Virus record (IMG/VR): IMGVR_UViG_3300017917_001910
Span: 1 to 64,000 of that record
Length of the DNA stretch: 64,000 bases
Direction: 5' to 3' (one strand)
Origin: a virus
Taxonomy: Duplodnaviria > Caudoviricetes
The notes under the pieces are model-generated. The model worked only from the letters and a program-made list of their open reading frames with translations. It made no database searches and was not told where the DNA came from. Below, one piece after another: positions 1 through 18,666 of the stretch. Position 1 is the first letter of the stretch, and every line of letters starts with the position of its first letter. A program made the position numbers and the translations under genes.

Positions 1-93
1 ATGCTTTCAGTTTTTCAATTAAAGTTTTCATATATTTTAAATTTTAGTTTATCAAATCAAGTTCAGTGTAAGCACTACGCTTATACTCAACCG

Positions 94-273
94 TTATAAA
101 ACATTTTTTAATTGGTTCTTCCAATATTCTTTCGTTCTATACAATTTAAAAGAATAATCCTGTTCCATTCTATCTCTTTTTTGTTCTCTTAAACTTTCTT
201 CATCTAAATACTTCAATTTCTTTTCAATTGTATCATATTCATCAGGTATCTTTAATAATTCTCTGTATATCAT
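94..273 (-). CDS. Cassette-borne hypothetical protein, 59 aa (MIYRELLKIPDEY...KNVL)
   Basis: Manual translation; the TAA stop lies inside the GTTA core at 93-96. Confidence 0.55.
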   Translation of the reverse strand: MIYRELLKIPDEYDTIEKKLKYLDEESLREQKRDRMEQDYSFKLYRTKEYWKNQLKNVL

Positions 274-286
274 AAAAAACGTTTTA

Positions 287-400
287 TAACAACAAATATA
301 AGCAATTATTTCATTACTTTAAAATAAATGTTGTTGGTTAATAATTATTTTTGTTCTTCTAATTTAGTTTAGTTATAACTGCTTATATTTGTAACCGTTA
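287..400 (+). repeat. attC-like hairpin site
   Basis: TAAC-AA-CAAATATAAGCAATTAT ... ATAACTGCTTATATTTG-TAACC-GTTA. Confidence 0.8.
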
Positions 401-501
401 TGTACAAGTGGGGTTGCCAGCTTCTCCAAGCCTGATGCGTTTTTAGTTTAAAGTCGGTATCCGTCACAACCGATTGCAGTTAATTACCCCCACCTGATAC
501 A

Positions 502-628
502 TAACAGCGTATATAAGAAATTGCGGTTTTGACTTTGGAAATGTAAGTCGCACAACTTTACATCTACACCCCATCAAAGTTACCATTTTGTGCAAAATAC
601 CGCAACTTCTCATATACGCAAAACGTTA
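502..628 (+). repeat. attC-like hairpin site
   Basis: TAAC-A-GCGTATATAAGAAATTGCGGT ... ACCGCAACTTCTCATATACGC-AAAAC-GTTA. Confidence 0.8.
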
Positions 629-841
629 TAAGCCATTTATGTAATCCTCAATAGCCTCTAAGTGTGCCAACATTAAAAATGCTTTATGGCATTGTTCATT
701 TTCTTTCGGTTGCTTACCTTCTTTTAATAGCGGTTCTGCTAATCTACCAGCGTTCACTTGCAATTTAAACTTTAAACGGCTTATAACATCGGCTATATGC
801 AATGCCTTTCCGTTTTCATCAAATACTTGTATATCAATCAT
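626..841 (-). CDS. Cassette-borne hypothetical protein spanning a core site (probable start MIDIQVFDENG at 841)
   Basis: ORF track 626..892; ALHIADVISR is encoded across the TAAC core at 784-787; stop lies in the GTTA core at 625-628. Confidence 0.6.
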   Translation of the reverse strand: MIDIQVFDENGKALHIADVISRLKFKLQVNAGRLAEPLLKEGKQPKENEQCHKAFLMLAHLEAIEDYINGL

Positions 842-906
842 TTTTGTATATTTATTAAGTTTTGTGCAAGTTTCACCATCGGCACTGCACATAGCCGTAA
901 GCGTTA
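784..906 (+). repeat. attC-like hairpin site
   Basis: TAAC-AT-CGGCTATATGCAATGCC ... GGCACTGCACATAGCCG-TAAGC-GTTA. Confidence 0.8.
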
Positions 907-922
907 TAGGTAATAAAATTTA

Positions 923-1117
923 CTACCATTGTCGTATAATTGAAAGTATTTCTTCCAATTCCATTCCATCACTAATCATTTCCGATATATCAGTTTCTTG
1001 TGAAGTGGTGAAGGTTGGTTCTCCATCAGGTATCTTATCAATACCATATCGTTTCTCAATCAACTTTTCTTCCCTAACTTTCAGTTCTACTTGTTTGAAT
1101 AATTTATCTTGTTTCAT
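923..1117 (-). CDS. Cassette-borne hypothetical protein
   Basis: 64-aa ORF lying wholly inside cassette body 903-1143. Confidence 0.6.
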   Translation of the reverse strand: MKQDKLFKQVELKVREEKLIEKRYGIDKIPDGEPTFTTSQETDISEMISDGMELEEILSIIRQW

Positions 1118-1139
1118 ATCCGTAAATTTTACATACCTA

Positions 1140-1229
1140 TAACAAAGTGTATAAGTAATGTGGCTAATAAAGTTTTGTTCTAAGTTGAAAGTATGTGCAA
1201 AGCCACACTACTCATACACTCAACCGTAA
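1140..1229 (+). repeat. attC-like hairpin site with mutated right core (GTAA)
   Basis: TAAC-AA-AGTGTATAAGTAATGTGGCT ... AGCCACACTACTCATACACT-CAACC-GTAA. Confidence 0.75.
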
Positions 1230-1401
1230 TACATCATTCTTAACCAATTTGTATCCTTCTTGTTCAGCTATTTTTTCCAACCAATGTTTAATGTAAAAAT
1301 TCACATCATCATCTGCTTCTTCGTGTTCCCATCTTACAACTTGTCTTAAATTATATTCCCAAGAGTATTCTCATTGAATTTTTCCATAGCAGAACGATGT
1401 A

Positions 1402-1530
1402 TAACATCAGATATATTCAAGTTTTCTTCTGACTCGTTAAATCTTTTAATGTGTTTTAAATCTTTCATCTTCGTATGTTATTTTAGTGTATATATTAAAA
1501 AGAAAACCTAAATATATCTGAGTATCGTTA
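1402..1530 (+). repeat. attC-like hairpin site
   Basis: TAAC-A-TCAGATATATTCAAGTTTTCT ... AGAAAACCTAAATATATCTGA-GTATC-GTTA. Confidence 0.75.
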
Positions 1531-1731
1531 GCGTAAATTGCCACTATTACAATATTTGTCTGTGCAAAATGGTTTTCCCATAGAATAACCACTTCTACCA
1601 CATTTTTGACAGTTATTAGGTGGCAACTGTCCACTAACACCAAATAAACGCAATAACCGTGCTTTTGCTTCATTTGATGTTATATGTCCTTCTCTAAGGT
1701 CTGATGCTATTTGTAAAATTTCTTCTTTCAT
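1528..1731 (-). CDS. Cassette-borne small Cys-rich (possible Zn-finger) protein spanning a core site
   Basis: CQKC...CTDKYC; LLRLFGVSGQ crosses the TAAC core at 1635-1638; stop in the GTTA core at 1527-1530. Confidence 0.6.
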   Translation of the reverse strand: MKEEILQIASDLREGHITSNEAKARLLRLFGVSGQLPPNNCQKCGRSGYSMGKPFCTDKYCNSGNLR

Positions 1732-1761
1732 ATCGTTACTGCGTTTATTTGTGAACCGTTA
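1635..1761 (+). repeat. attC-like hairpin site
   Basis: TAAC-AC-CAAATAAACGCAATAAC ... GTTACTGCGTTTATTTG-TGAACC-GTTA. Confidence 0.8.
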
Positions 1762-1770
1762 TAAGTAATA

Positions 1771-1932
1771 TTATTTTTGTTTTGAATTTTTATAACTATC
1801 GTGTGTTTTATTAACAGCATCTTGAACACTTTCCATCCAAGTTCTAAATATTGGTCTGAAGTTAAATATACTCATCTCAGCATCCCAAATTACTTTTGGT
1901 ATTTCAATTTTAATAATTTTTCGGTTTTTCAT
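1771..1932 (-). CDS. Cassette-borne hypothetical protein, about 53 aa (MKNRKIIKIEIPKVIWDAEM...)
   Basis: Manual translation inside cassette body 1758-1980. Confidence 0.5.
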   Translation of the reverse strand: MKNRKIIKIEIPKVIWDAEMSIFNFRPIFRTWMESVQDAVNKTHDSYKNSKQK

Positions 1933-2055
1933 AATTTAATTTTTTTATATGGTAAAACAAAAATAATACATACTTATAACAACAAGTTTGTGAAATAAAC
2001 CGCTTTCGATTTGTCCGTAAGTTAATCGGTTAATTGAATTTTTGTGTTTCATATA

Positions 2056-2089
2056 CTTAAAGATAAGAAAAACATTTCATATTTACAAA
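2056..2089 (-). promoter_or_regulatory. Bacteroidota-type promoter (-33 TTTG / -7 TATCTTTA) reading into array 1
   Basis: Minus strand TTTGTAAATATGAAATGTTTTTCTTATCTTTAAG; nearly identical to 16535-16568. Confidence 0.6.
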
Positions 2090-2586
2090 TAAAAGTCGCT
2101 GTGATATGGTAAAGTATTGTTATTCAATGTATTATTTTTAGTTTCATCCTCTAATATACGTTCTTCTGTAGAAAGAAGTCCTTTTCCGAACTTCTTTAAT
2201 CTTTTCCAATAACGTTCTTTAATACGGTTAGATATACGAATTGGATTTCCTTCATCATCAATTCGTACGAACTTCATTTTTGTATGAGTTACAATTTCTT
2301 GAATGCCTGTATATACGTTATGCTTTCTGGCTTCAATATATAATGTTATAGAAGTATTTCCGAATTCCGATACTTCTCCATAAATCTTTATAATATTTCC
2401 TAACTTTATGGGCTTTTTAAAGATAAACTCATCTACTTTTATAGTAATCATTCTAGGTGTATCGCAAATTTGAGCAGAATATACTGCAGAAGCTTCATCT
2501 ACCCACCCGACTAATGTACCTCCAAACATATTGTTATGAATACCAATATCCGATGCTTTACATATATGTGTACTTATTAGTTCCAT
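2083..2586 (-). CDS. Acyl-CoA thioesterase (hotdog fold)
   Basis: HNNMFGGTLVGWVDEA...F.KPI.LG...GNTSI...FVRIDDEG, YciA-like motifs. Confidence 0.85.
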   Translation of the reverse strand: MELISTHICKASDIGIHNNMFGGTLVGWVDEASAVYSAQICDTPRMITIKVDEFIFKKPIKLGNIIKIYGEVSEFGNTSITLYIEARKHNVYTGIQEIVTHTKMKFVRIDDEGNPIRISNRIKERYWKRLKKFGKGLLSTEERILEDETKNNTLNNNTLPYHSDFYL

Positions 2587-8703: not shown

Positions 8704-8765
8704 TTTATAACTTATTTTTTATCTAATATAAAGATATTATTTCATATATCCTAATGTATGAACAT

Positions 8766-8791
8766 AAAAAAAGCCCTTAATTAGGGGCTTT
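8766..8791 (-). terminator. Intrinsic terminator
   Basis: AAAGCCCT-TAATT-AGGGGCTTT hairpin followed by a U-tract on the minus strand, after 8804. Confidence 0.7.
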
Positions 8792-8803
8792 AATTATTTA
8801 TGA

Positions 8804-9583
8804 TTATTTCTTTAATCCGTCATTTATTAAATAAAAAAAGTTAGATTTACTATCTCGTTTAATTTCTGGATATACTTCTTTTAGTATATCGTATATTTTA
8901 AATGCTAACTTTGGGTCGATGCTGAATAAATTTAATTCTTCTTTACCAGATATATCTTGTTCTTTTAATTTCTTTTTAGGTCTTTTATTGAAACTAGCAA
9001 ATTTATCTACCGGTGCTGGTCCGGTTTTCTTTATTATGTATAAAGTAATAAACGAAAGGGTTGCAATAGTAAAGAATACAAAAAATGCATACATACCTAA
9101 TTTAAACCAAATACTTCCTTCAGTTGCTTGGGCGCCATACAAATCAACCATAATCTTCATTACATCAGATTCAGCCATTCCTTGGATTGTTTTGTAATAC
9201 CATTGATTGAATGATCTGTCTATGTATTGTAGACCACCGGCAACAGATAATAGTCCACTTACAAAAGAACCTATCCCTCCACCTAATAAACCACCTTTTG
9301 CAAATTGTTTAAGCCTGTCTACAAAGCCTTCATTTAAGCTTTGTGAGTCTGTTTCTAACTCCATTTGGGCTTTTTCCATAGATCCTTGTGGAAGGGGCTT
9401 AGTAGTTAAGTTATCTATATTAACGTGATTAGAAGCTTCTTCGTAGTTATCTTTAGCAGCCTTTACTGCCGCTGCTTTAATCTTTGATAAAAAGTCTGTT
9501 AGCTTAGATTCAGTTAGTTGTTGTTCAAATACTGCTAGTTGAATTTCTTCCTTAATGATCTTTTTTAAATCTGATTTTTTCAT
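8804..9583 (-). CDS. Hypothetical membrane-associated protein with MKKSDLKKIIKEEI leader
   Basis: 259-aa ORF with two hydrophobic segments. Confidence 0.7.
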   Translation of the reverse strand: MKKSDLKKIIKEEIQLAVFEQQLTESKLTDFLSKIKAAAVKAAKDNYEEASNHVNIDNLTTKPLPQGSMEKAQMELETDSQSLNEGFVDRLKQFAKGGLLGGGIGSFVSGLLSVAGGLQYIDRSFNQWYYKTIQGMAESDVMKIMVDLYGAQATEGSIWFKLGMYAFFVFFTIATLSFITLYIIKKTGPAPVDKFASFNKRPKKKLKEQDISGKEELNLFSIDPKLAFKIYDILKEVYPEIKRDSKSNFFYLINDGLKK

Positions 9584-11697: not shown

Positions 11698-14241
11698 TTA
11701 AAATTCAAAGAAATTTTTTCCGTAATTATTCTTCGGCACTTCTGACCAACCTAATGCTCCAAAGAAATCATTAAGTTTATTTTCTAAGGAAGCTTCAAAG
11801 ATGCTCGTATAATCAATATGTTCCTTAACGATAGAATAGATATCCATTGGATCATTAAAGCCCGTTAAAGCTAAGGTTTCGATACCTAATCGATTAGGTT
11901 TTAGGTAAGTCCATTTTATTTTATCTCCGTCACTAATAGGTGCCATAGAATTAATTTTAAAGTGTTCTAATAAGTCATTAAAATTAGCAGCAGATTTTGC
12001 ATGAATAGGCATACCTTTTGGTCTTGTTTTAAATATAGACCCAGTTTTCTTACAAGGATACTTACTTAATTCTTTAATACCAGAGATGGTCATAATATCA
12101 TAAATGTCTAATGAAGGTAATGAATCTTTAAGATCAAATATCTTATCAACGATTTCTTGCTTTTCTGCTTTATTAAGAATATCAATAATAATGCCTGACA
12201 TAAATCCTCTAAATGCTTTTGGAAATGAAGATCTTACAACATCTAATCCTTTTACATCTAGTTTATATTCTTTTTTACCATTTGTCATTTTAGATATACT
12301 TACACCCTTTTCAGAAATAATTTTTTGAGCATATCGCTTTTTTGCAATCCACATTGCCGTTTCAGACACATATTCTTGTTTTGTTTGAAAATGATGTTCT
12401 GTTGCATTAAATGCGTTCTTTGCAAAATCATTAAACGTTGAATTAATAACACTTTCACAAGCTACGGCTAATTTAAAAGTAATATCTGCACATTCATCTC
12501 TAGTTAATTCACGTCCTTGGTTTCTTTGCATCTTTTTAATTAACGGCATTGCTGAGAAGAATGCAGAATCCGTATCAATATACAATACATAATCAATGCC
12601 ACTCGTTCCTAATTTTTGGTTTAGCCAATTATTAGCATAATTCGTTTTATGCATAATAACTGCTTTACCTCCTAATGTAGTTCCTTCAGCATTATCAATA
12701 TCATAAAATCTAAATCCAGCATTACCTAAAACACCATATAAAGAATTAGATAAGATTTTCATTGTTAATTGACGCGAATCAAAGAAACGATACATTTTTT
12801 CATTACCAGATTCACCATATTTCTTTGCAAGTTGTCGATATTCTGTTCTTTCCGTATCCCATTTTTCTAAGATAGATGGAACTAATCCTTTTGTTTTAAG
12901 ATCATAAATAACGCCAACGGCTGAGATAGAAAAGTTATTTTCTTCTAAGAATCTTCTTAGCTCCATTCCTTTCCAAGACTTAGATTTATACTTATATACA
13001 TAAGTTTCATCATTCTTCATGAATTTTGTATGGTCCCAATTTTCAATCTTACATACCTTAGTTTCTGGAGAAATATTAATTGTTCTTTGAGTTGAAGGAT
13101 ATAAGGCTTTTAAGTCCAAGTCAAATACCCATTCATACAATCCTGGTTTAGGATCTTTTACAAATGCTCCTTCAAATCCATTTTCGTCAGAATCTTCATC
13201 TTCGTCACTTTCTTCTCTTAAGGGTTTATTAGTAGCAATGATTCCTAATCGATTTAAGTAAGTAAGACAAGCTCCATCCAAATATCTACTAGATGCAAAT
13301 ACATCTTCATAAGGAACATGTCCTTTATGAGCAATGTTTCTTGCTAATGTAATAAAGTCTAGTTTCTCATCTAAGTCTACAACCAATTGAACGTCATTAA
13401 TATTATACTCAATAAACTTTTCTAAATCTTGTTTATAAAGATTATCTAAGTCTCCTTCATACTGAATCTTTCCGCGACCTAATTCTTTTTGAGATATAAA
13501 TTCTAAAGCATAAGAAGGTTCTTCGTTATAAGTAAATGCTTTATACAAATACATATAATCTAGTGCAGCTACGCCACCAATATTCATTCTGTCTTTACGG
13601 AAGTCTTTTGAAACTACTCCTACTGGACTTAATTGCTTTGCTACATTAGCACCTAAAAGCTTTTTAGTTCTGTGATAAATATAAGGAACGTCAAATCCAT
13701 CTATATTCCATCCAGTTAAAATATCTGGGCTAATTTCTAGATAAAGTTGAAAGAATCTATTTAATAAGTCCTTTTCTGTTGAAAATGCTTCAAATATATA
13801 CTTATCTGTTCTTTTATTTTTTGTAAGATGTTCTTTATCTAATAATAATACATTCCAATCTTTAGAAATATTATCATATAAAGTTATTGCCGTGACTTCA
13901 TTATCTGCATCCCATGGAGTAGAATAACCATCACCTTTTGATACTTCAATATCAAAAAACAATGTAGTTATATCTTCTGAAATATCATCTGTATCTCCGT
14001 AATTATCTATTAGAACACGTATTTCAGGTCTTATATCTGATTCATATATAATTCCTCTTTGTTCATCTTCTTTATCCCAATTATAAACTTTCTCTACACG
14101 ATTACCGTCTAAAGCAGTATGCTTTCCGTTTGGAGCTTTAATATAAGCATATTTCTTATACTTAAAATTAAGACGACCTTTTTTATCGTCCCAAACAATT
14201 ACTTCGTTTTGTTCTCTATTGTAATATACGTTTTTATACAT
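11698..14241 (-). CDS. polB: DNA polymerase family B (T4 gp43-like)
   Basis: FFDIEV (exo I), GWNIDGFD, DLKALYPS, KILSNSLYG, YIDTDS, KKRYA, VKGLDVVRSS. Confidence 0.97.
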   Translation of the reverse strand: MYKNVYYNREQNEVIVWDDKKGRLNFKYKKYAYIKAPNGKHTALDGNRVEKVYNWDKEDEQRGIIYESDIRPEIRVLIDNYGDTDDISEDITTLFFDIEVSKGDGYSTPWDADNEVTAITLYDNISKDWNVLLLDKEHLTKNKRTDKYIFEAFSTEKDLLNRFFQLYLEISPDILTGWNIDGFDVPYIYHRTKKLLGANVAKQLSPVGVVSKDFRKDRMNIGGVAALDYMYLYKAFTYNEEPSYALEFISQKELGRGKIQYEGDLDNLYKQDLEKFIEYNINDVQLVVDLDEKLDFITLARNIAHKGHVPYEDVFASSRYLDGACLTYLNRLGIIATNKPLREESDEDEDSDENGFEGAFVKDPKPGLYEWVFDLDLKALYPSTQRTINISPETKVCKIENWDHTKFMKNDETYVYKYKSKSWKGMELRRFLEENNFSISAVGVIYDLKTKGLVPSILEKWDTERTEYRQLAKKYGESGNEKMYRFFDSRQLTMKILSNSLYGVLGNAGFRFYDIDNAEGTTLGGKAVIMHKTNYANNWLNQKLGTSGIDYVLYIDTDSAFFSAMPLIKKMQRNQGRELTRDECADITFKLAVACESVINSTFNDFAKNAFNATEHHFQTKQEYVSETAMWIAKKRYAQKIISEKGVSISKMTNGKKEYKLDVKGLDVVRSSFPKAFRGFMSGIIIDILNKAEKQEIVDKIFDLKDSLPSLDIYDIMTISGIKELSKYPCKKTGSIFKTRPKGMPIHAKSAANFNDLLEHFKINSMAPISDGDKIKWTYLKPNRLGIETLALTGFNDPMDIYSIVKEHIDYTSIFEASLENKLNDFFGALGWSEVPKNNYGKNFFEF

Positions 14242-14263
14242 ATTTTAATATAATGATAATACC

Positions 14264-15061
14264 TTATATAGGCAAATTTATTTTAGATAAAAGTTGATTT
14301 GATACATGAGTGTAAATTTCAGTAGTTTTAATATTAGAATGACCTGCAAGTTTTTGTATTATTCTAATATCCGTCCCGGATTCTAATAAGGCAGTAAAAC
14401 AAGAATGTCGTAGCGTATGAATATGTCCCGATGAATCTATATATTTTTTATAAATTTTTTGACAACTACCTATTGAATAATAAAGAGAATCTTGCCCGTT
14501 AAATAGATATTCTATAGGCTTATATTGTTTAAAATACTCTCTAAGTAATGTTAATACATTTTCTGAGAGCGGTACAATCCTATCTTTTCTGCCTTTAGCA
14601 TTTTTAATGTGTATAAGCATCCTTTTCGAGTCAATATCCTCAATTTTTAGATTGACTATTTCAGACACTCGTAATCCAACTGAGTAGGTTAGTGTTAAGA
14701 TTGCTTTATGTTTAAGATTTTCTATTTTTTGCAGTTGTGTTTTGATAAGATTACTATCAACTACCTTCGGTAATTTCTTTTCTGATTTTGGTCTTTCTAT
14801 TTTAGATAAATGAATGTCTTTTTTATTTAGTATATACTTAGAAAATAATTTCAATGCTCCTATATATTGATTTTGTTGACTACAAGAAGTATATGGATAT
14901 TTTTCAAGGAATGAGACTATCTGTTGAGTTCTTACTTGATATGGGTCTTTAATTTTTTCCGTTTCTAAAAAAAGTTTTAAATAAGAAATATATAACTTGA
15001 TACTGTTATTAGAATAGTTTTTATATCTTAATTTTTCTTCAAAAATTTTAAGAATTTTCAT
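14264..15061 (-). CDS. Tyrosine recombinase, integron-integrase-related (SAM-like N-terminal domain)
   Basis: GLRVSE, AKGRKDRIVPL, HTLRHS, DIRIIQKLAGHSNIKTTEIYTHVS; R-K-H-R-H-Y catalytic set intact; no IntI-specific insertion. Confidence 0.92.
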   Translation of the reverse strand: MKILKIFEEKLRYKNYSNNSIKLYISYLKLFLETEKIKDPYQVRTQQIVSFLEKYPYTSCSQQNQYIGALKLFSKYILNKKDIHLSKIERPKSEKKLPKVVDSNLIKTQLQKIENLKHKAILTLTYSVGLRVSEIVNLKIEDIDSKRMLIHIKNAKGRKDRIVPLSENVLTLLREYFKQYKPIEYLFNGQDSLYYSIGSCQKIYKKYIDSSGHIHTLRHSCFTALLESGTDIRIIQKLAGHSNIKTTEIYTHVSNQLLSKINLPI

Positions 15062-15097
15062 GTTTAAATTATTGATTTTATTAGAGATTTAGGTAGG

Positions 15098-15130
15098 TTA
15101 TGTATATATAATAGTTATATGCAATGCTAC
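15098..15130 (+). other. attI-like site
   Basis: First GTTA core (15114) lies 53 bp upstream of the integrase start and, unlike all other cores, has no preceding hairpin arm (TATGTATATATAATA-GTTATATGCAATGC). Confidence 0.55.
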
Positions 15131-15196
15131 GTTTCTGCTTCGTATTAAGTTTGGTGTATAATCTTTTTGTTTTATTTTTTCTTCCACCACACAAAA

Positions 15197-15634
15197 TTAA
15201 CGATTATATACCATAAAAGGTGCTGTTGAATCTGTTTCAAAATTGTTATCTTCTTCTGAAACTCTAAAACCATTTTTAATATACCAATCTACTAATTCTT
15301 GTTGATTTAAACCACCGCTTGTTTTAATATTATTTGATATTGATGCTCTTAAAGATAGTGGTACACCTGTTTTATCAGAATATTTTTTTAGTTTATTAAG
15401 TAATTTAGTTGCGTATCCTTTACCTTTAATATCAGACCAAATTTCAGATATATAAATAGAAACTTCACCATCAGATAATTGTTCAATATTTAATTCAGCG
15501 TGTGCATATCCATCATCAATTTTAACTTCGTCTAATTCAAAATACAATAATTTATTTAATCTTGAATTTTCAAATATTTTCTGTTCATTCAAATATTCAC
15601 GTATAGTAGTTGCTATAAATTTTCTTAATTCCAT
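15197..15634 (-). CDS. Cassette-borne GNAT-fold protein (probable start MELRKFIATTIREYLNE)
   Basis: KGKGYATKLL (acetyl-CoA-binding motif A) and LVDWYIKNGF. Confidence 0.7.
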   Translation of the reverse strand: MELRKFIATTIREYLNEQKIFENSRLNKLLYFELDEVKIDDGYAHAELNIEQLSDGEVSIYISEIWSDIKGKGYATKLLNKLKKYSDKTGVPLSLRASISNNIKTSGGLNQQELVDWYIKNGFRVSEEDNNFETDSTAPFMVYNR

Positions 15635-15753
15635 ATTATCAAATAGTTTTATTCTATATATAAATATCCAAATTTTAATTTCCCACTCACAAAAATAAAA
15701 CAAAAAGGTTCATCTCTCGTATCAAAGTTTGTAGGTTAAAACCGCACTGCATA

Positions 15754-15842
15754 TAACAAAATGTATAAGAAAGTTTGCTATCAAGTTTAGTACTAATTTG
15801 AAAGTTCATCATAAGCAAACCTTCTCATACACCCAACCGTTA
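15754..15842 (+). repeat. attC-like hairpin site
   Basis: TAAC-AAAA-TGTATAAGAAAGTTTGCT ... AGCAAACCTTCTCATACA-CCCAACC-GTTA. Confidence 0.8.
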
Positions 15843-15853
15843 TGTTCAATGAA

Positions 15854-16147
15854 TCAAAAACCAATTTCTTCTAATCTTTTTTTAATCGCTTTAAGAACTT
15901 TACTTCTTATTTTATTTGATTTGTTCATACCACTCCAAAGACCTTGTAGTTTAACTAACTTTTCCATTCCTTTTTCACCATTACATTTAGATATATCAAA
16001 TAAAATATCTTCTAATTCCTTATCTTCCATTGTGTATATTTTCTTATCTTCCATTGTGTAGATTTTTGATTCACTAAACATAACATCAGATATATGTAAT
16101 TTTTTATCTGTGTTATCAAGTTCTGTGTTCTTATTATCTTTATTCAT
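15854..16147 (-). CDS. Cassette-borne hypothetical protein spanning a core site
   Basis: KLHISDVMFS crosses the TAAC core at 16081-16084. Confidence 0.65.
   Translation of the reverse strand: MNKDNKNTELDNTDKKLHISDVMFSESKIYTMEDKKIYTMEDKELEDILFDISKCNGEKGMEKLVKLQGLWSGMNKSNKIRSKVLKAIKKRLEEIGF
16019..16066. repeat. 24-bp tandem duplication (KIYTMEDK x2)
   Basis: CTTATCTTCCATTGTGTA(T/G)ATTTT twice. Confidence 0.9.
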
Positions 16148-16204
16148 ATTATTTAAGTTTTGTGTTTCAATTTAAGAAAAAACTACATATATCTGTGACC
16201 GTTA
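16081..16204 (+). repeat. attC-like hairpin site
   Basis: TAAC-AT-CAGATATATGTAATTTTTT ... AAAAAACTACATATATCTG-TGACC-GTTA. Confidence 0.8.
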
Positions 16205-16213
16205 TACGTAATG

Positions 16214-16468
16214 CTAATCATACAGCGTTACCTTTCCATCTTTATAATCATAACTTCCACTACGACCCAACACCCAAAAAAGAACACCTGCGTCATTTGC
16301 ATATTCTTTCTGTGTTTCAATATCACCACATTCTCTTGCGTTTTCAAGTCCTGCCAACGCACATCGTAGTCGTTCTTCTATCTCAGAAGCACTACGCATA
16401 ACAACAGATAAAAGCAATTTTTCATCACTTCTATTTGAGTTATCTTGCATAATTTTACTTTCGTCCAT
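16214..16468 (-). CDS. Cassette-borne hypothetical protein spanning a core site
   Basis: KLLLSVVMRS crosses the TAAC core at 16399-16402. Confidence 0.65.
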   Translation of the reverse strand: MDESKIMQDNSNRSDEKLLLSVVMRSASEIEERLRCALAGLENARECGDIETQKEYANDAGVLFWVLGRSGSYDYKDGKVTLYD

Positions 16469-16511
16469 TTTATTTAATTTTAGTTAAAACTGCTTTTATC
16501 TGCAACCGTTA
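16399..16511 (+). repeat. attC-like hairpin site
   Basis: TAAC-AA-CAGATAAAAGCAATTTT ... AAAACTGCTTTTATCTG-CAACC-GTTA. Confidence 0.8.
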
Positions 16512-16534
16512 TAAACAATGCTACTTTTATTATA

Positions 16535-16568
16535 CTTAAAGATAAGGAAAACAATTCATATTTCCAAA
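16535..16568 (-). promoter_or_regulatory. Bacteroidota-type promoter reading into array 2 and the integrase
   Basis: Minus strand TTTGGAAATATGAATTGTTTTCCTTATCTTTAAG (TTTG-N20-TATCTTTA). Confidence 0.6.
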
Positions 16569-16621
16569 TTTTATTATAATTTTAATGTATTGATATTCAG
16601 TATGTAAGGCCTTACTATTCA

Positions 16622-17125
16622 TTATGAAAAATGTTTTTTTATTGTTATAGGATATAATCCTTTATTGTTTTGAGTAATATCAAACTGCAGAAGAATTGCT
16701 CCATTATAATTTATTTTCTTAAATAAAGTATCATTATTACTTAATAAAGCATCTACTACCAACTTTCGCATTTCATTTAAATCATACATTACATAGGTCT
16801 TAGTATATGTATTTACATGATAGATTCGGTCAGCTCGGCTCGAAAAGAACCAACCGAGCTTTCCGTGATCTTGAATCTCTACTTTAAAATGATGGTCCCA
16901 ATCGCAATACAAATTATTTTTACAGTCTAGATAATATTCTCGTAACCACTCTGGCTTCTTAATACTAAAGTCATAACCGCGCTTTTGATGTTCTACTTGG
17001 CCTGCATAATCAGTTACTTCATAACCATATGATTGTAATATTGATTTAAGCCATTCTTCTCCGATTTGTCCTTTGGTGCCAGTTACTGGAAATCTCTCTG
17101 TTAAGGTTGTATTGTATTGAGCCAC
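16622..17125 (-). CDS. Putative PD-(D/E)XK-fold nuclease
   Basis: G..GE...Q.RGYDF...DCK...VEI...GW...S.AD pattern. Confidence 0.55.
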   Translation of the reverse strand: MAQYNTTLTERFPVTGTKGQIGEEWLKSILQSYGYEVTDYAGQVEHQKRGYDFSIKKPEWLREYYLDCKNNLYCDWDHHFKVEIQDHGKLGWFFSSRADRIYHVNTYTKTYVMYDLNEMRKLVVDALLSNNDTLFKKINYNGAILLQFDITQNNKGLYPITIKKHFS

Positions 17126-17126
17126 T

Positions 17127-17273
17127 TTATTTTAAATTCTTAACGAAATTATAAAATTCTTCTCTTACTTTAGCATCGTCTTTAAATGCTCCCGTTAATT
17201 TTGAAGTAATCATTGTCGAATCATGCTGAATACCTCTTAAACAAGCGCATTGATGACCTAATTTCTTTTCCAT
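17127..17273 (-). pseudogene. Orphan duplicate of the folE 3' end (48-aa ORF MEKKLG-HQCACLRGIQHDSTMITSKLTGAFK...)
   Basis: Manual translation matches the C-terminus of 18037..18666. Confidence 0.9.
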
Positions 17274-17869
17274 TATTTTAAATTTTGTTTTTGTTCCTGT
17301 CTTACACGCTTCATTGTTTCTGAAATACGTTGTTTAATATCATCTGGAGTTTTTTTACCTGCATTCCATGCTTTCCTACCTTTATGCATATTAGATAAAT
17401 TATCTTTAAACTCTTGAGAACGTACCTTACCGCTATTTGCATTACTAATTTTTAATTTTGTCGCATCGGTATGTTTCCAATTTGTTCTAGATTTTTTTCT
17501 TTTAGCAATGCATTCTGCACTCATTTTCTTACCAGTAAATAACTCACTACGTATACTTGATTGTTGAGTTTTTATCAACTCATATATTCTTGATGACGGG
17601 ATATATCTTTTTCCTGCCCGTCCTTTACTCGTAACCATACACCAAAGAGCATAAATTAACTGTTTATTACCTGGATATATTTCACAAAGTAACCGATGAC
17701 AAATAAAATGTTCTTTTGCAGTTAACATTACTAAATTATCACTATCATTATTACCGCCCAAACATTTAGGAATAATATGATGTTTTTCGTAATAATGTTC
17801 TTTAGTACGAATTCGTATTTCTGAATTAGCTTTTTGTATTATCTGATTGTATATTTTTTCGTAATTCAT
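17273..17869 (-). CDS. HNH homing endonuclease with NUMOD3 motifs
   Basis: EKHHIIPKCLGG.N...NLV.LTAKEHFICH.LL; KHTDATKLKIS; GRKAWNAGKK. Confidence 0.9.
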   Translation of the reverse strand: MNYEKIYNQIIQKANSEIRIRTKEHYYEKHHIIPKCLGGNNDSDNLVMLTAKEHFICHRLLCEIYPGNKQLIYALWCMVTSKGRAGKRYIPSSRIYELIKTQQSSIRSELFTGKKMSAECIAKRKKSRTNWKHTDATKLKISNANSGKVRSQEFKDNLSNMHKGRKAWNAGKKTPDDIKQRISETMKRVRQEQKQNLK

Positions 17870-17987
17870 AGTATTTTTCCATTGCTTTATCGTTTATAAT
17901 CTGTTTATTACGGTCATAATAAGATTTAGACCATTTACGTTGAGCTTCTTTAAGCTCTTCTTCGGTATATTTCTTTTTACGTCCCAT
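17826..17987 (-). CDS. Small basic protein, 53 aa (MGRKKKYTEEELKEAQRKW...), overlapping the HNH gene start
   Basis: Manual translation; late-type ATAATTAT motif just upstream. Confidence 0.55.
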   Translation of the reverse strand: MGRKKKYTEEELKEAQRKWSKSYYDRNKQIINDKAMEKYYELRKNIQSDNTKS

Positions 17988-18036
17988 ATTGCTTTATTAT
18001 AATTATATCACTAATAGAAAAATACTAATAGAATTA

Positions 18037-18666
18037 TTACTTATTTTTAAGATACCCAATGAACTTATAAAACTCATCGCGTGTTGCTGCATCTGATTTA
18101 AATGCTCCAGTTAGTTTAGAAGTCATCATTGTTGAATCATGTTGAATGCCTCTTAAACAAGCACATTGGTGATTTGCTTCAATTACTACAGCAACTCCTA
18201 AGTTAAACTCACAAGTGTTATTTAAATATGCACTAATTTGTTCTGTTAGGTTCTCTTGGACCTGCGGCATACGACAAAAATAATCTACAACGCGATTTAA
18301 TTTACTTAATCCAATTACTTTACCATTAGGCGCTGGAAGATATGCAACATACGCTTTACCGGTAAACGGCAAATGATGATGGCTACAAATAGATTTAACA
18401 TTAATATCTCCTTGAAAGACCATTCCATCATATCTATCTGTGTTAGAAAATGCTGTAATTTTAGGTGGTTCATTAAACTTTGATTTAATTAAGTCATTAA
18501 CAAAAGATTTAGATACTCTTCTCGGAGTATCTATTTCATGTGGATTATTATCAGGATCTAGTCCTAATGCTTTCATAAAATCATAATAGTGCTTACTTGC
18601 AGTTTGTATGATTGTTTCTTTTTCTTCTTCAGTGTATTGTTTAAAATTCTTCATTGTTGTTTTCAT
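18037..18666 (-). CDS. folE: GTP cyclohydrolase I
   Basis: TPRRV, SICSHHHLPF.G, IGLSKLNR, QVQENLT, HQCACLRG. Confidence 0.96.
   Translation of the reverse strand: MKTTMKNFKQYTEEEKETIIQTASKHYYDFMKALGLDPDNNPHEIDTPRRVSKSFVNDLIKSKFNEPPKITAFSNTDRYDGMVFQGDINVKSICSHHHLPFTGKAYVAYLPAPNGKVIGLSKLNRVVDYFCRMPQVQENLTEQISAYLNNTCEFNLGVAVVIEANHQCACLRGIQHDSTMMTSKLTGAFKSDAATRDEFYKFIGYLKNK

Follow-up and report, generated by a model that had tools for sequence, protein, structure and literature searches.

A tyrosine recombinase beside an array of hairpin-bounded cassettes: a probable integron-like gene-capture platform on a 2.4-kb module of a T4-like phage

Integrons are viewed as bacterial, and lately also archaeal, devices which depend on the IntI-specific I2 helix of their integrases. 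A 2.4-kb module of a freshwater phage raises the question of whether genes can be captured and shuffled in an integron-like manner by a recombinase that lacks this helix. The module is located in the first 64 kb of the 115,252-nt IMG/VR record IMGVR_UViG_3300017917_001910 (completeness rating, 59%); this stretch of 64,000 nt is referred to as the window. The module comprises the gene of a 265-aa tyrosine recombinase and, upstream of it, three small cassettes with hairpin-forming sites (Table 1). The initial annotation had proposed a distinct gene-capture and shuffling system, a proposal which, as far as sequence comparison reaches, is supported by breakpoints at the core motifs, by gain and reordering of cassettes in relatives, and by linkage of the sites to one recombinase clade. 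An integron-like gene-capture platform, carried by the module in a T4-like phage, is in our view the probable explanation. The phage is T4-like as judged by its family B DNA polymerase (11698–14241), the closest matches of which are polymerases of T4-like cyanophages and Pelagibacter phages; the taxa of its relatives, and promoter-like motifs, suggest that the host is probably a bacterium of the Bacteroidota.

On the minus strand, i.e., the sense strand, which holds all genes from 11.7 to 20 kb of the window, each unit consists of TAAC, 5 nt, a left arm, a loop, a right arm, 2 nt, GTTA(T/G), an open reading frame (ORF), and an end of the form ..ATK-N4-M-TAAC. The last unit adjoins TAAC/TATTATATATAC (here and below, a slash within a motif marks the junction), 53 nt ahead of the recombinase start. 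On the plus strand, forward cores GTTAT-N4-AATG occur at 15114, 15839, 16201 and 16508, three of them exact and one with a single mismatch, and inverted cores CAYT-N4-ATAAC at 15744, 16071 and 16389. The initial annotation had located the cores, the hairpins and the complementary arms of the cassette bodies, and had placed the start of the array 53 bp upstream of the recombinase. These assignments proved accurate: the arm pairs listed in Table 1 extend over 17–22 nt with 89–95% complementarity, and the first core is 53 nt away from the start codon at 15061. Features that it did not mention are the common direction of the ORFs, which all run toward the recombinase, the translation of the long hairpins, and a second array at the start of the window.

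The strict core occurs four times in forward orientation in the 115,252-nt record, three of these copies being located here, and not once in reverse orientation (backwards control, one match in each orientation). A scan for hairpin sites, defined by TAAC, an asymmetric spacer, at least 13 of 16 paired positions, and GTTA, retrieved nine sites from the real genome and a total of two from twenty shuffled genomes; eight of the nine fall within the two arrays. A role of the core as a genome-wide promoter or terminator signal was rejected, because the core is confined to the arrays. The lone site outside both arrays (8708–8843, plus strand, 13 of 16 positions paired) may be due to chance, since shuffled genomes give about 0.1 matches each. 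Searching positions 14900–16800 against Rfam at a permissive E-value yielded chance-level matches only, none of them relevant.

Relatives of the recombinase are encoded by 107 stretches of the viral collection, of which the best 80 (52–88% identity) were compared; counts given for 81 loci refer to these 80 and the window. A conserved TAAC/TATNATATATA, the consensus of which was derived from the sites of 63 non-redundant relatives, is found by regular-expression search about 50–75 nt ahead of the recombinase gene in 74 of the 81 loci. The sequences to the left of the docking TAAC are unrelated among loci, and homology to other phages stops exactly at TAAC. On this comparative evidence, the junction behaves as expected of attI, i.e., as a docking site beside the integrase gene at which cassettes are inserted, and the first core, which lacks a hairpin and had been termed attI-like in the initial annotation, merits this designation. 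The motif TAACG[GA]T occurs 217 times in 314 kb of sense-strand sequence upstream of the recombinase and 46 times in 502 kb downstream (30 and 47 times, respectively, on the other strand), which corresponds to an approximately sevenfold enrichment upstream on the sense strand. Ahead of the recombinase gene, 3 to 12 copies of this core are present, all of them in one orientation; the arrays reach at least 11–12 units, and all ORFs and hairpins of a locus are co-oriented (81 + 15 loci).

The linkage of sites and recombinase was also assessed with relatives from bacterial genomes (185,579 species genomes). The docking motif is present in six of 80 bacterial-genome loci, five of them among the closest relatives (at least 52% identity), and all of these close relatives are situated on contigs of metagenome-assembled genomes. 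Bacterial relatives with less than 50% identity are not accompanied by arrays; a lone hairpin match occurs in only four of these loci, and the docking motif gave a single regular-expression match. The sites are therefore linked to the recombinase clade of the phages, with 74 of 81 loci carrying the docking motif and the lower-identity bacterial relatives lacking arrays. Moreover, an exact 19-nt left junction of the hairpin type hp2 was found in 15 viral loci, eight of which encode a relative of the recombinase 376–3,825 nt downstream on the same strand. The carriers among the 80 related loci are large contigs of T4-like or jumbo phages of up to 362 kb. The backbone genes flanking the recombinase are not common to the loci, a distant polymerase being located within 6 kb in one locus only. 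A nucleotide search with positions 14000–17200 against GenBank phages gave no match.

Near-identical backbones reveal where the arrays break. In three pairs of loci, identity starts at the docking TAAC and the sequences before it are unrelated: L008 and L009 are 100% identical over 1,229 nt, L039 and L033 100% over 2,651 nt, and L024 and L029 99.75% over 6,853 nt. Locus L036 matches L039 except for one additional unit of about 797 nt, which separates the previous cassette end from the docking site. L023 and L026, whose backbones are 97% identical, contain two blocks of 960 nt (99.9% identity) and 1,828 nt (100% identity) in swapped order, with ends at TAAC. The cassette content of relatives, which the initial annotation had suggested to compare, thus differs, grows, and is reordered at the cores.

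Further variants were obtained by comparing positions 12500–18500 with Logan contigs of four freshwater runs (X1–X4), bearing in mind that contigs drop rare variants. In contigs of X3 and X4, which stem from two studies, position 14246 is joined to 16630, with 2,383 nt skipped and three ambiguous letters at the joint. The flanks of these contigs are approximately 90–97% identical to the window, and the start of the polymerase follows directly after the end of ORF167; the whole 2,383-nt module therefore is an indel between close relatives. The initial annotation had also attached weight to the position of the module just upstream of the DNA polymerase gene. While the position is correct, the adjacency appears to be incidental, because close relatives lack the module and because it is found in different surroundings in the 80 related loci, without exception. 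A 2,362-nt contig of X3 holds exactly the segment 15114–15842 (about 97% identity, 18 differences, 5 gaps), with unlike sequence on both sides, and loose ends of Logan contigs are also located at 16080 and 16204. Neither a strand-changing joint nor a circle joint was reported in the contigs of the four runs, although contigs cannot exclude rare forms.

Cultured phages encode the closest named relatives of the recombinase, namely, the integrases of Cellulophaga phage Ingeline (40% identity) and of Polaribacter phages Freya (37%) and Leef (35%). Freya_10 carries about 4.9 kb with 12 small ORFs which are absent from Freya_1; the extra DNA is situated exactly upstream of the integrase gene, with AAC cores at its bounds, between a cassette-like end (..ACAAC) and the pre-integrase sequence (..CTAAC/ACCCC..). 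Ten Freya isolates cover 2%, 14%, 79%, 93% or 100% of the Freya_10 array, and the shared parts are 98.7–100% identical. Danklef phages, which represent another species and infect another host strain, share 38% of this array at 97.3% identity. Freya and Danklef thus are cultured carriers of isolate-variable arrays, which makes direct testing possible. Among MT732458–MT732472 (Danklef and Freya; 43,978–48,920 nt), isolates of the same species differ only in the number of small ORFs upstream of the integrase gene; genome sizes of 44.0–48.9 kb are given in the original publication (PMC8776804).

Several features of the sites themselves are in favor of a folded structure. When 28 hairpins of the 113–131-nt class, a set which leans toward structure because it was picked for arm complementarity, were analyzed by RNAalifold, 19 pairs were predicted, 17 of which were associated with double compensatory changes; one G-T(U) pair is invariant in all 28. 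In 100 non-redundant hairpins, the arms pair at a frequency of 0.8–0.99 per position, as compared to about 0.3 for shuffled partners. Positions that deviate from Watson-Crick pairing comprise, on the sense strand, 162 G-T, six A-C and 42 other combinations, and this disparity between G-T and A-C indicates that selection acts on one strand. In 83 of 99 hairpins, a spacer of 5 nt next to TAAC contrasts with one of 1–2 nt next to GTTA, and the two spacers differ by 3 or 4 nt in 96 of 99. At all three sites of the window, the minus strand folds better than the plus strand. The sites share with attC an imperfect inverted repeat, R and L boxes, an unpaired spacer, a variable loop, and conservation of structure over sequence; their core letters (TAAC/GTTA) overlap the published GTTRRRY core in part only. 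If the plus strand is considered and the recombinase drawn leftwards, the order attI-G/TTAT, body, ..ATAAC-hairpin-G/TTAT conforms to canonical integron polarity, and only the ORFs are inverted; the better-folding, G-T-tolerant strand then corresponds to the bottom strand of integrons.

Complementary arms at the ends of cassette bodies, pointed out for the window by the initial annotation, turned out to be a general and partner-specific feature. Comparison of the 12 nt beyond the core showed that the two ends of the same cassette body are complementary at 7.08 of 12 positions (n = 134), whereas shuffled partners match at 4.34 ± 0.14 positions (200 shuffles; highest value, 4.66). Across a hairpin in its arrayed state, the two sides match at 4.39 positions (n = 145). 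Such partner-specific pairing of ends is what an integron-type reaction would predict. With exchange at a single core of each site, the outer box following an arrayed hairpin would be that of the neighboring unit. Position 7 of the cassette-end pairing is nearly always a G opposite T. In both the hairpin stem (28 of 28; alignment columns 23–25 and 116–118) and the cassette-end stem (+9 to +11 and –8 to –6 from the cores), AGT is located opposite ATT with a G-T wobble, T at –7 of the cassette-end stem being found in 97–100% and G at +10 in 70% of the cases. This AGT/ATT element may be a mark recognized by the recombinase.

The recombinase is an intact member of the tyrosine recombinase superfamily and is encoded by a single-copy gene in the 115-kb record. 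It contains a Phage_integrase domain (PF00589; E-value, 1e-34) and a SAM_4 domain (1.4e-08), as well as the catalytic R-K-H-R-H/W-Y set; R131, K156, H215, R218, H241 and Y250 are retained in at least 97% of 65 unique relatives of 243–267 aa. The enzyme is a member of the Xer/IntI clade. The NCBIfam models XerA_Arch, XerD and XerC give 185.6, 154.9 and 151.8 bits, respectively (cut-offs, 220, 329.6 and 335.15), so that the protein cannot be assigned to any of these equivalogs, and the integron integrase model TIGR02249 matches in two stretches with 157.4 bits (cut-off, 265). The nearest solved structure is XerA of Pyrococcus (4a8e; 5e-36). The alignment with VchIntIA (2a3v) spans residues 10–181 and 260–312 of the latter, 30 residues of the query standing against 78 of IntIA between the two segments. 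Since about 48 residues of IntIA are without a counterpart, the additional I2 segment which distinguishes the IntI subfamily is missing, as the initial annotation had stated for this 265-aa protein. PHROGs and the annotators of GenBank entries label the relatives of the enzyme ‘integrase’.

On these grounds, we propose the following scheme. The 265-aa recombinase, which very probably is the catalyst, would exchange strands at or next to TAAC (G/TTA on the plus strand), and two sites would release a cassette, consisting of a hairpin and the downstream ORF, as a circle; a circular intermediate is favored somewhat over its absence. In the circle, the cassette's own ends would pair over 12–22 bp and extend the hairpin stem, such that a single strand would adopt the shape of a dumbbell. 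The folded site would then recombine with the docking site, whereby the newest cassette would land beside the recombinase gene; whether the substrate is indeed a folded single strand rather than duplex sites appears evenly balanced to us. Only one strand (the sense strand, or bottom strand by integron layout) would be selected to fold, fixing the orientation of the cassettes. The cassettes would be expressed by read-through toward the recombinase, and hairpin loops of the 110–139-nt type would contribute a start codon plus some 20 codons that continue in frame into the cargo.

Several observations run counter to this scheme. No circle junction was seen in the assembled contigs. An hp2-type hairpin recurs at 87–96% identity beside unrelated ORFs, with homology ending at both cores; a single crossover point is insufficient for this recurrence, so that a second breakpoint or an unknown process of cassette making would be needed. 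Acquisition of the I2 helix is described as having conferred single-strand recombination on integron integrases (PMC7790495). Since the phage enzyme has no equivalent of the segment aligned to residues 182–259 of VchIntIA, a folded-strand mechanism would require another solution. Folding energies calculated for single DNA sequences are only weakly better than those of shuffled sequences (z-scores of –1.0 to –2.0), and the case for structure therefore rests on covariation and comparison, not on thermodynamics. An RNA structure would be just as compatible with the bias of G-T over A-C and with start codons located in loops. The linkage to the recombinase is incomplete, as the recombinase gene follows within 10 kb in only eight of the 15 loci with the hp2 junction. 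In two more, it is situated elsewhere on the contig: L176 has it at the opposite end (L057), and one of five others searched whole has it 48 kb away. The remaining four of these five encode none, two of the four being rated 100% complete. The records without recombinase on the contig contain one to two hairpins, as compared to three to 12 in carriers with a downstream recombinase. As to the cultured phages, the Freya integrase is only 37% identical and the junction letters are slightly different. Finally, most of the comparisons were made with metagenome assemblies, in which repeats of 60–130 nt can give false joins.

The most serious competitor, albeit an unlikely one, is shuffling of Xer/dif-type modules, in which the junctions on both sides of the hairpins would be ordinary double-stranded sites, and bodies and hairpins would be independent modules, each between inversely oriented sites, swapped between co-infecting genomes. 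Such shuffling could dispense with a folded strand and with any rule on circles. It would account well for an enzyme which scores like XerA, XerD and XerC and is devoid of the I2 segment, for the alternating orientation of the cores, and for hp2 hairpins beside unrelated bodies with homology ending at both cores. Modules between inversely oriented pdif sites are described for Acinetobacter plasmids (PMC6449649, PMC13141974), and small modules between short, inversely oriented sites are indeed a trait which the array shares with Xer/dif systems. The enzyme, however, scores below all Xer cut-offs and is encoded beside the array, and its sites are structured hairpins with variable arms rather than a conserved 28-bp duplex. 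Arms that are highly variable and yet complementary are consistent with recognition of structure and not of a sequence-specific half-site; mismatches (G-T) are tolerated on one strand alone; and the mobile units consist of a hairpin with its ORF, with cuts restricted to the TAAC side. Duplex sites in inverse orientation would moreover be expected to invert, but orientation is uniform and no strand-changing joint was reported. Inversion is also the crux of a shufflon-like explanation, in which the alternating cores would be inversion sites varying expression. Shufflons are segments inverted by a tyrosine recombinase, Rci, and seven cores of alternating orientation beside a tyrosine recombinase gene resemble the arrangement of the R64 shufflon. 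Units of the module are gained, lost and reordered: relatives differ in presence, absence and order but not in orientation, cassette ORFs and hairpins are co-oriented in all 81 + 15 loci, and units in both orientations were found neither in any locus nor in the contigs of the four runs, from which rare variants may drop out. We consider this explanation hardly credible.

The hairpins could also act at the RNA level, as leader signals for translation or processing which are shuffled by homologous recombination, their conservation supplying the homology, with the recombinase performing some other task. This idea is improbable, though it has a precedent in the PeSL elements of T4-type phages, for which PMC2839356 describes promoter/stem-loop cassettes, repeated stem-loops flanking small non-essential ORFs, modular shuffling, and mini-circles as a proposed product. 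The phage considered here is T4-like according to the matches of its polymerase, G-U pairs are compatible with the strand that is transcribed as sense strand, and start codons are located in loops, reading proceeding in frame into an ORF of 30 aa or more in 36 out of 62 long hairpins. PeSLs are promoter-terminator units that are repeated across hyperplastic genome regions and recombine by homology, without a dedicated recombinase, a docking site or exact core breakpoints. Here, the hairpin motif is no general signal of the genome, eight of nine sites being confined to two arrays, and the sites are clade-linked to the recombinase; breaks occur exactly at TAAC, i.e., at a core of 4–5 letters, and are not spread over repeats of 90–130 nt. 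When a unit inserts at the docking site (L036 versus L039), site and incoming unit have only the 4–5-letter core in common, so that homology cannot guide the insertion, and pairing of cassette ends over a distance of 200–700 nt is without an evident role in RNA. Less probable still is an ordinary lysogeny integrase or dimer resolvase, with TAAC/TATNATATATA as attachment or resolution site and the upstream genes as a hyperplastic region. Apart from the label ‘integrase’ given to relatives, this proposal could invoke the cultured phages, since the integrases of Freya, Ingeline and Leef are taken in PMC8776804 as a sign of a possible temperate life. It does not explain why 3 to 12 copies of the core, all in the same orientation, precede the gene, why phage genes occur on both flanks of the module, why large contigs of T4-like or jumbo phages, of a length of up to 362 kb, act as carriers, or why chromosomal relatives of bacteria with less than 50% identity lack the motif.

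Integrons, especially sedentary chromosomal ones with their homogeneous attC sites, thus remain the closest match to the integron-like platform that we favor. Both have a recombinase gene beside a docking site without hairpin, arrays of mostly one-gene cassettes, and sites built as imperfect inverted repeats in which outer boxes (..TAAC and GTTA..) are combined with inner arms, a loop that varies, and a spacer that is asymmetric and unpaired; crossover is placed at G/TT of the outer box with one strand favored, stop codons often stem from the TAA of the core, near-identical hairpins are associated with unrelated cargo, and arrays without recombinase exist. Unlike integron integrases, the phage enzyme, at 265 aa, has no I2 segment and scores 157 bits against the cut-off of 265. 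The phage ORFs run toward the recombinase, with the hairpin 5' of the ORF and often translated, the end-to-end complementarity amounts to 12–22 bp instead of about 7, the carrier is a phage of virulent type, and the module itself is an indel between close relatives. Clusters of attC sites without integrase (CALINs), found by IntegronFinder in virulent phages including a Polaribacter phage (PMC9892861), likewise are GTT-core hairpin sites in lytic phages with methyltransferase cargo. They are canonical attC sites tested with bacterial IntI1, and no phage-encoded recombinase is reported in that paper, whereas the enzyme of the module is dedicated and phage-encoded, belongs to another subfamily, and is linked to a site type of its own.

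Cassette expression differs from that of integrons, where a Pc promoter at the attI end drives transcription of the cassettes in the direction leading away from intI: here, the cassette ORFs all run toward the recombinase, and a promoter-like motif is located at the far end of the array. In the 110–139-nt class of hairpins, an ATG in the loop remains open to the core in 41 of 62 cases and continues for at least 30 codons in 36, while such a reading was found in none of 55 hairpins of the 70–99-nt class and none of 16 of the 40–59-nt class. Cassettes 2 and 3 have leaders of the translated type, ending in ..HISDV and ..LLSVV followed by M-x-S, with about 22 in-frame codons; indels in the leaders keep the frame, and many ORFs end at the TAA of the next TAAC. 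A function of the ..ISDV leader as a capsid-targeting or cleavage tag, an idea modeled on such tags of T4 internal proteins, found no support. The leader end is probably dictated by the DNA stem, as its letters show no synonymous variation and are part of the stem. Cassette 1 is of another kind, with a short untranslated hairpin and its own leader; other loci contain its conserved 5' and 3' ends with 85–90% identity. Cassettes of this type (L041, L044, L056, L060) have conserved ends of about 200 nt (5') and 100 nt (3'), inner arms, and a variable ORF in between. In the ORF of cassette 2, positions 16013–16060 comprise a 24-nt tandem duplication (92% identity), which results in a repeating peptide YTMEDK(K/E).

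None of the three cassette proteins of the window belongs to a significant family, and PHROGs gave no match for them or for ORF167. The 145-aa protein of cassette 1 probably has a GNAT fold, as suggested by a GNAT lead in a protein atlas (score, 0.95) and by Pfam matches to GNAT (0.007) and RHH, both sub-threshold only. Among 150 scanned ORFs out of 278 non-redundant array ORFs, 11 matched a Pfam family at an E-value of at most 1e-4, i.e., four DNA methyltransferases, an Rv2179c-like exoribonuclease, an RNA ligase, four domains of unknown function, and Tad6, a Thoeris inhibitor (4.6e-41).

A description of a phage-encoded, non-IntI cassette platform was not found in the literature, supplements aside. 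The novelty in comparison with integrons consists in the different enzyme, in sites that are inverted and in part translated, and in the carrier, which is a phage. If the integron-like reading is correct, a phage platform run by a shorter Xer-like enzyme would mean that the logic of capture and shuffling arose more than once or predates I2. Phages then would have their own route for trading small counter-defense genes such as the methyltransferases and the Thoeris inhibitor in the cargo, and the extended end pairing and start-codon hairpins would bear on how cassettes are made and expressed. It is tempting, though rather speculative, to go further and suppose that a Xer-type enzyme without I2 helix independently evolved structure-specific single-strand recombination, that the hairpin serves as translation start and common N-terminal tag, such that any ORF placed behind it is expressed immediately, and that the cassettes form a swappable counter-defense arsenal which expresses itself and is traded between co-infecting phages. 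The module would then be a mobile integron of the virosphere.

Table 1. Features of the module and of the second array in the window
Feature	Position	Strand	Description	Basis
Whole module	14247..16629	-	2,383 bp; promoter-like motif, three cassettes, attI-like site, recombinase	Absent in close relatives
Tyrosine recombinase	14264..15061	-	265 aa, intact, Xer/IntI clade	Pfam, NCBIfam, structure alignment, residue conservation
attI-like junction	15097..15129	-	Hairpin-less; minus strand: cassette end ...GCATATAAC / TATTATATATAC...	Consensus of relatives, homology break
Cassette 1	15114..15842	-	89-nt hairpin (15754-15842), own 5' leader, ORF 15197-15634 (145 aa, GNAT-like), conserved end arms	
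Cassette 2	15839..16204	-	124-nt hairpin (16081-16204) with start codon and 22 leader codons in frame into body; ORF 15854-16147	
Cassette 3	16201..16511	-	113-nt hairpin (16399-16511) with start codon and leader in frame into body; ORF 16214-16468	
Terminal core	16508..16524	-	Cassette-end-like arm closing the array at its far side	
Promoter-like motif	16525..16569	-	TTTG-N20-TATCTTTA, reading into the array	One of four genome copies
Inner arm pair of cassette 1	15160-15179 / 15691-15710		20 nt, 95% complementary; absent from the initial annotation	
Arm pair	15762-15779 / 15814-15831		18 nt, 89% complementary	
Arm pair	15839-15860 / 16063-16084		22 nt, 91% complementary	
Arm pair	16087-16105 / 16177-16195		19 nt, 95% complementary	
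Arm pair	16405-16421 / 16486-16502		17 nt, 94% complementary	
Second array	1..2095	-	At least 7 hairpin units, no recombinase in view; last unit runs off contig start	Hairpin scan
Hairpins of second array	1635-1761, 1402-1530, 1140-1229, 784-906, 502-628, 287-400, one from 96 off contig start	-		

The second array (Table 1) begins with a copy of the promoter-like motif (2046–2090), which is followed by the hairpin units; some of its leaders are translated, e.g., one ending in ..NLNISDV. The promoter-like sequence of about 45 nt (TTTG-N20-TATCTTTAAGTAT) occurs in four copies on the minus strand, at 2090, 16569, 28355 and record position 113017, and two of the four head cassette arrays. A promoter function of the motif TTTG-N20-TATCTTTA is presumed from its resemblance to the promoter consensus of the Bacteroidota. 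The very high contig depth at 16520–16720, and joints at which contigs go back, are attributable to the four copies. A role of the motif at 16525–16569 as a conserved array leader was rejected, since a search of the 80 related loci did not retrieve it and since three further copies of this promoter-like sequence exist in the genome.

The recombinase gene is less than 750 nt away from a contig end in 15 of the 80 loci (L009, L013, L020, L024, L029, L030, L043, L061, L064, L066, L072–L074, L077 and L084). Breaks of assemblies in or beside the arrays are to be expected from repeats or from heterogeneity of the population, and the arrays account for assemblies of these phages breaking at such places.

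Outside the module, a gene coding for an HNH endonuclease (17273–17869) follows the GTP cyclohydrolase I gene (18037–18666), and a 48-aa ORF (17127–17273) repeats the C-terminus of the cyclohydrolase. The arrangement at 17127–18666 resembles an insertion of a homing endonuclease in which the target end has been duplicated. In a relative from X4, position 17259 is joined to 18245 with 69 other letters, i.e., the HNH insertion is absent.

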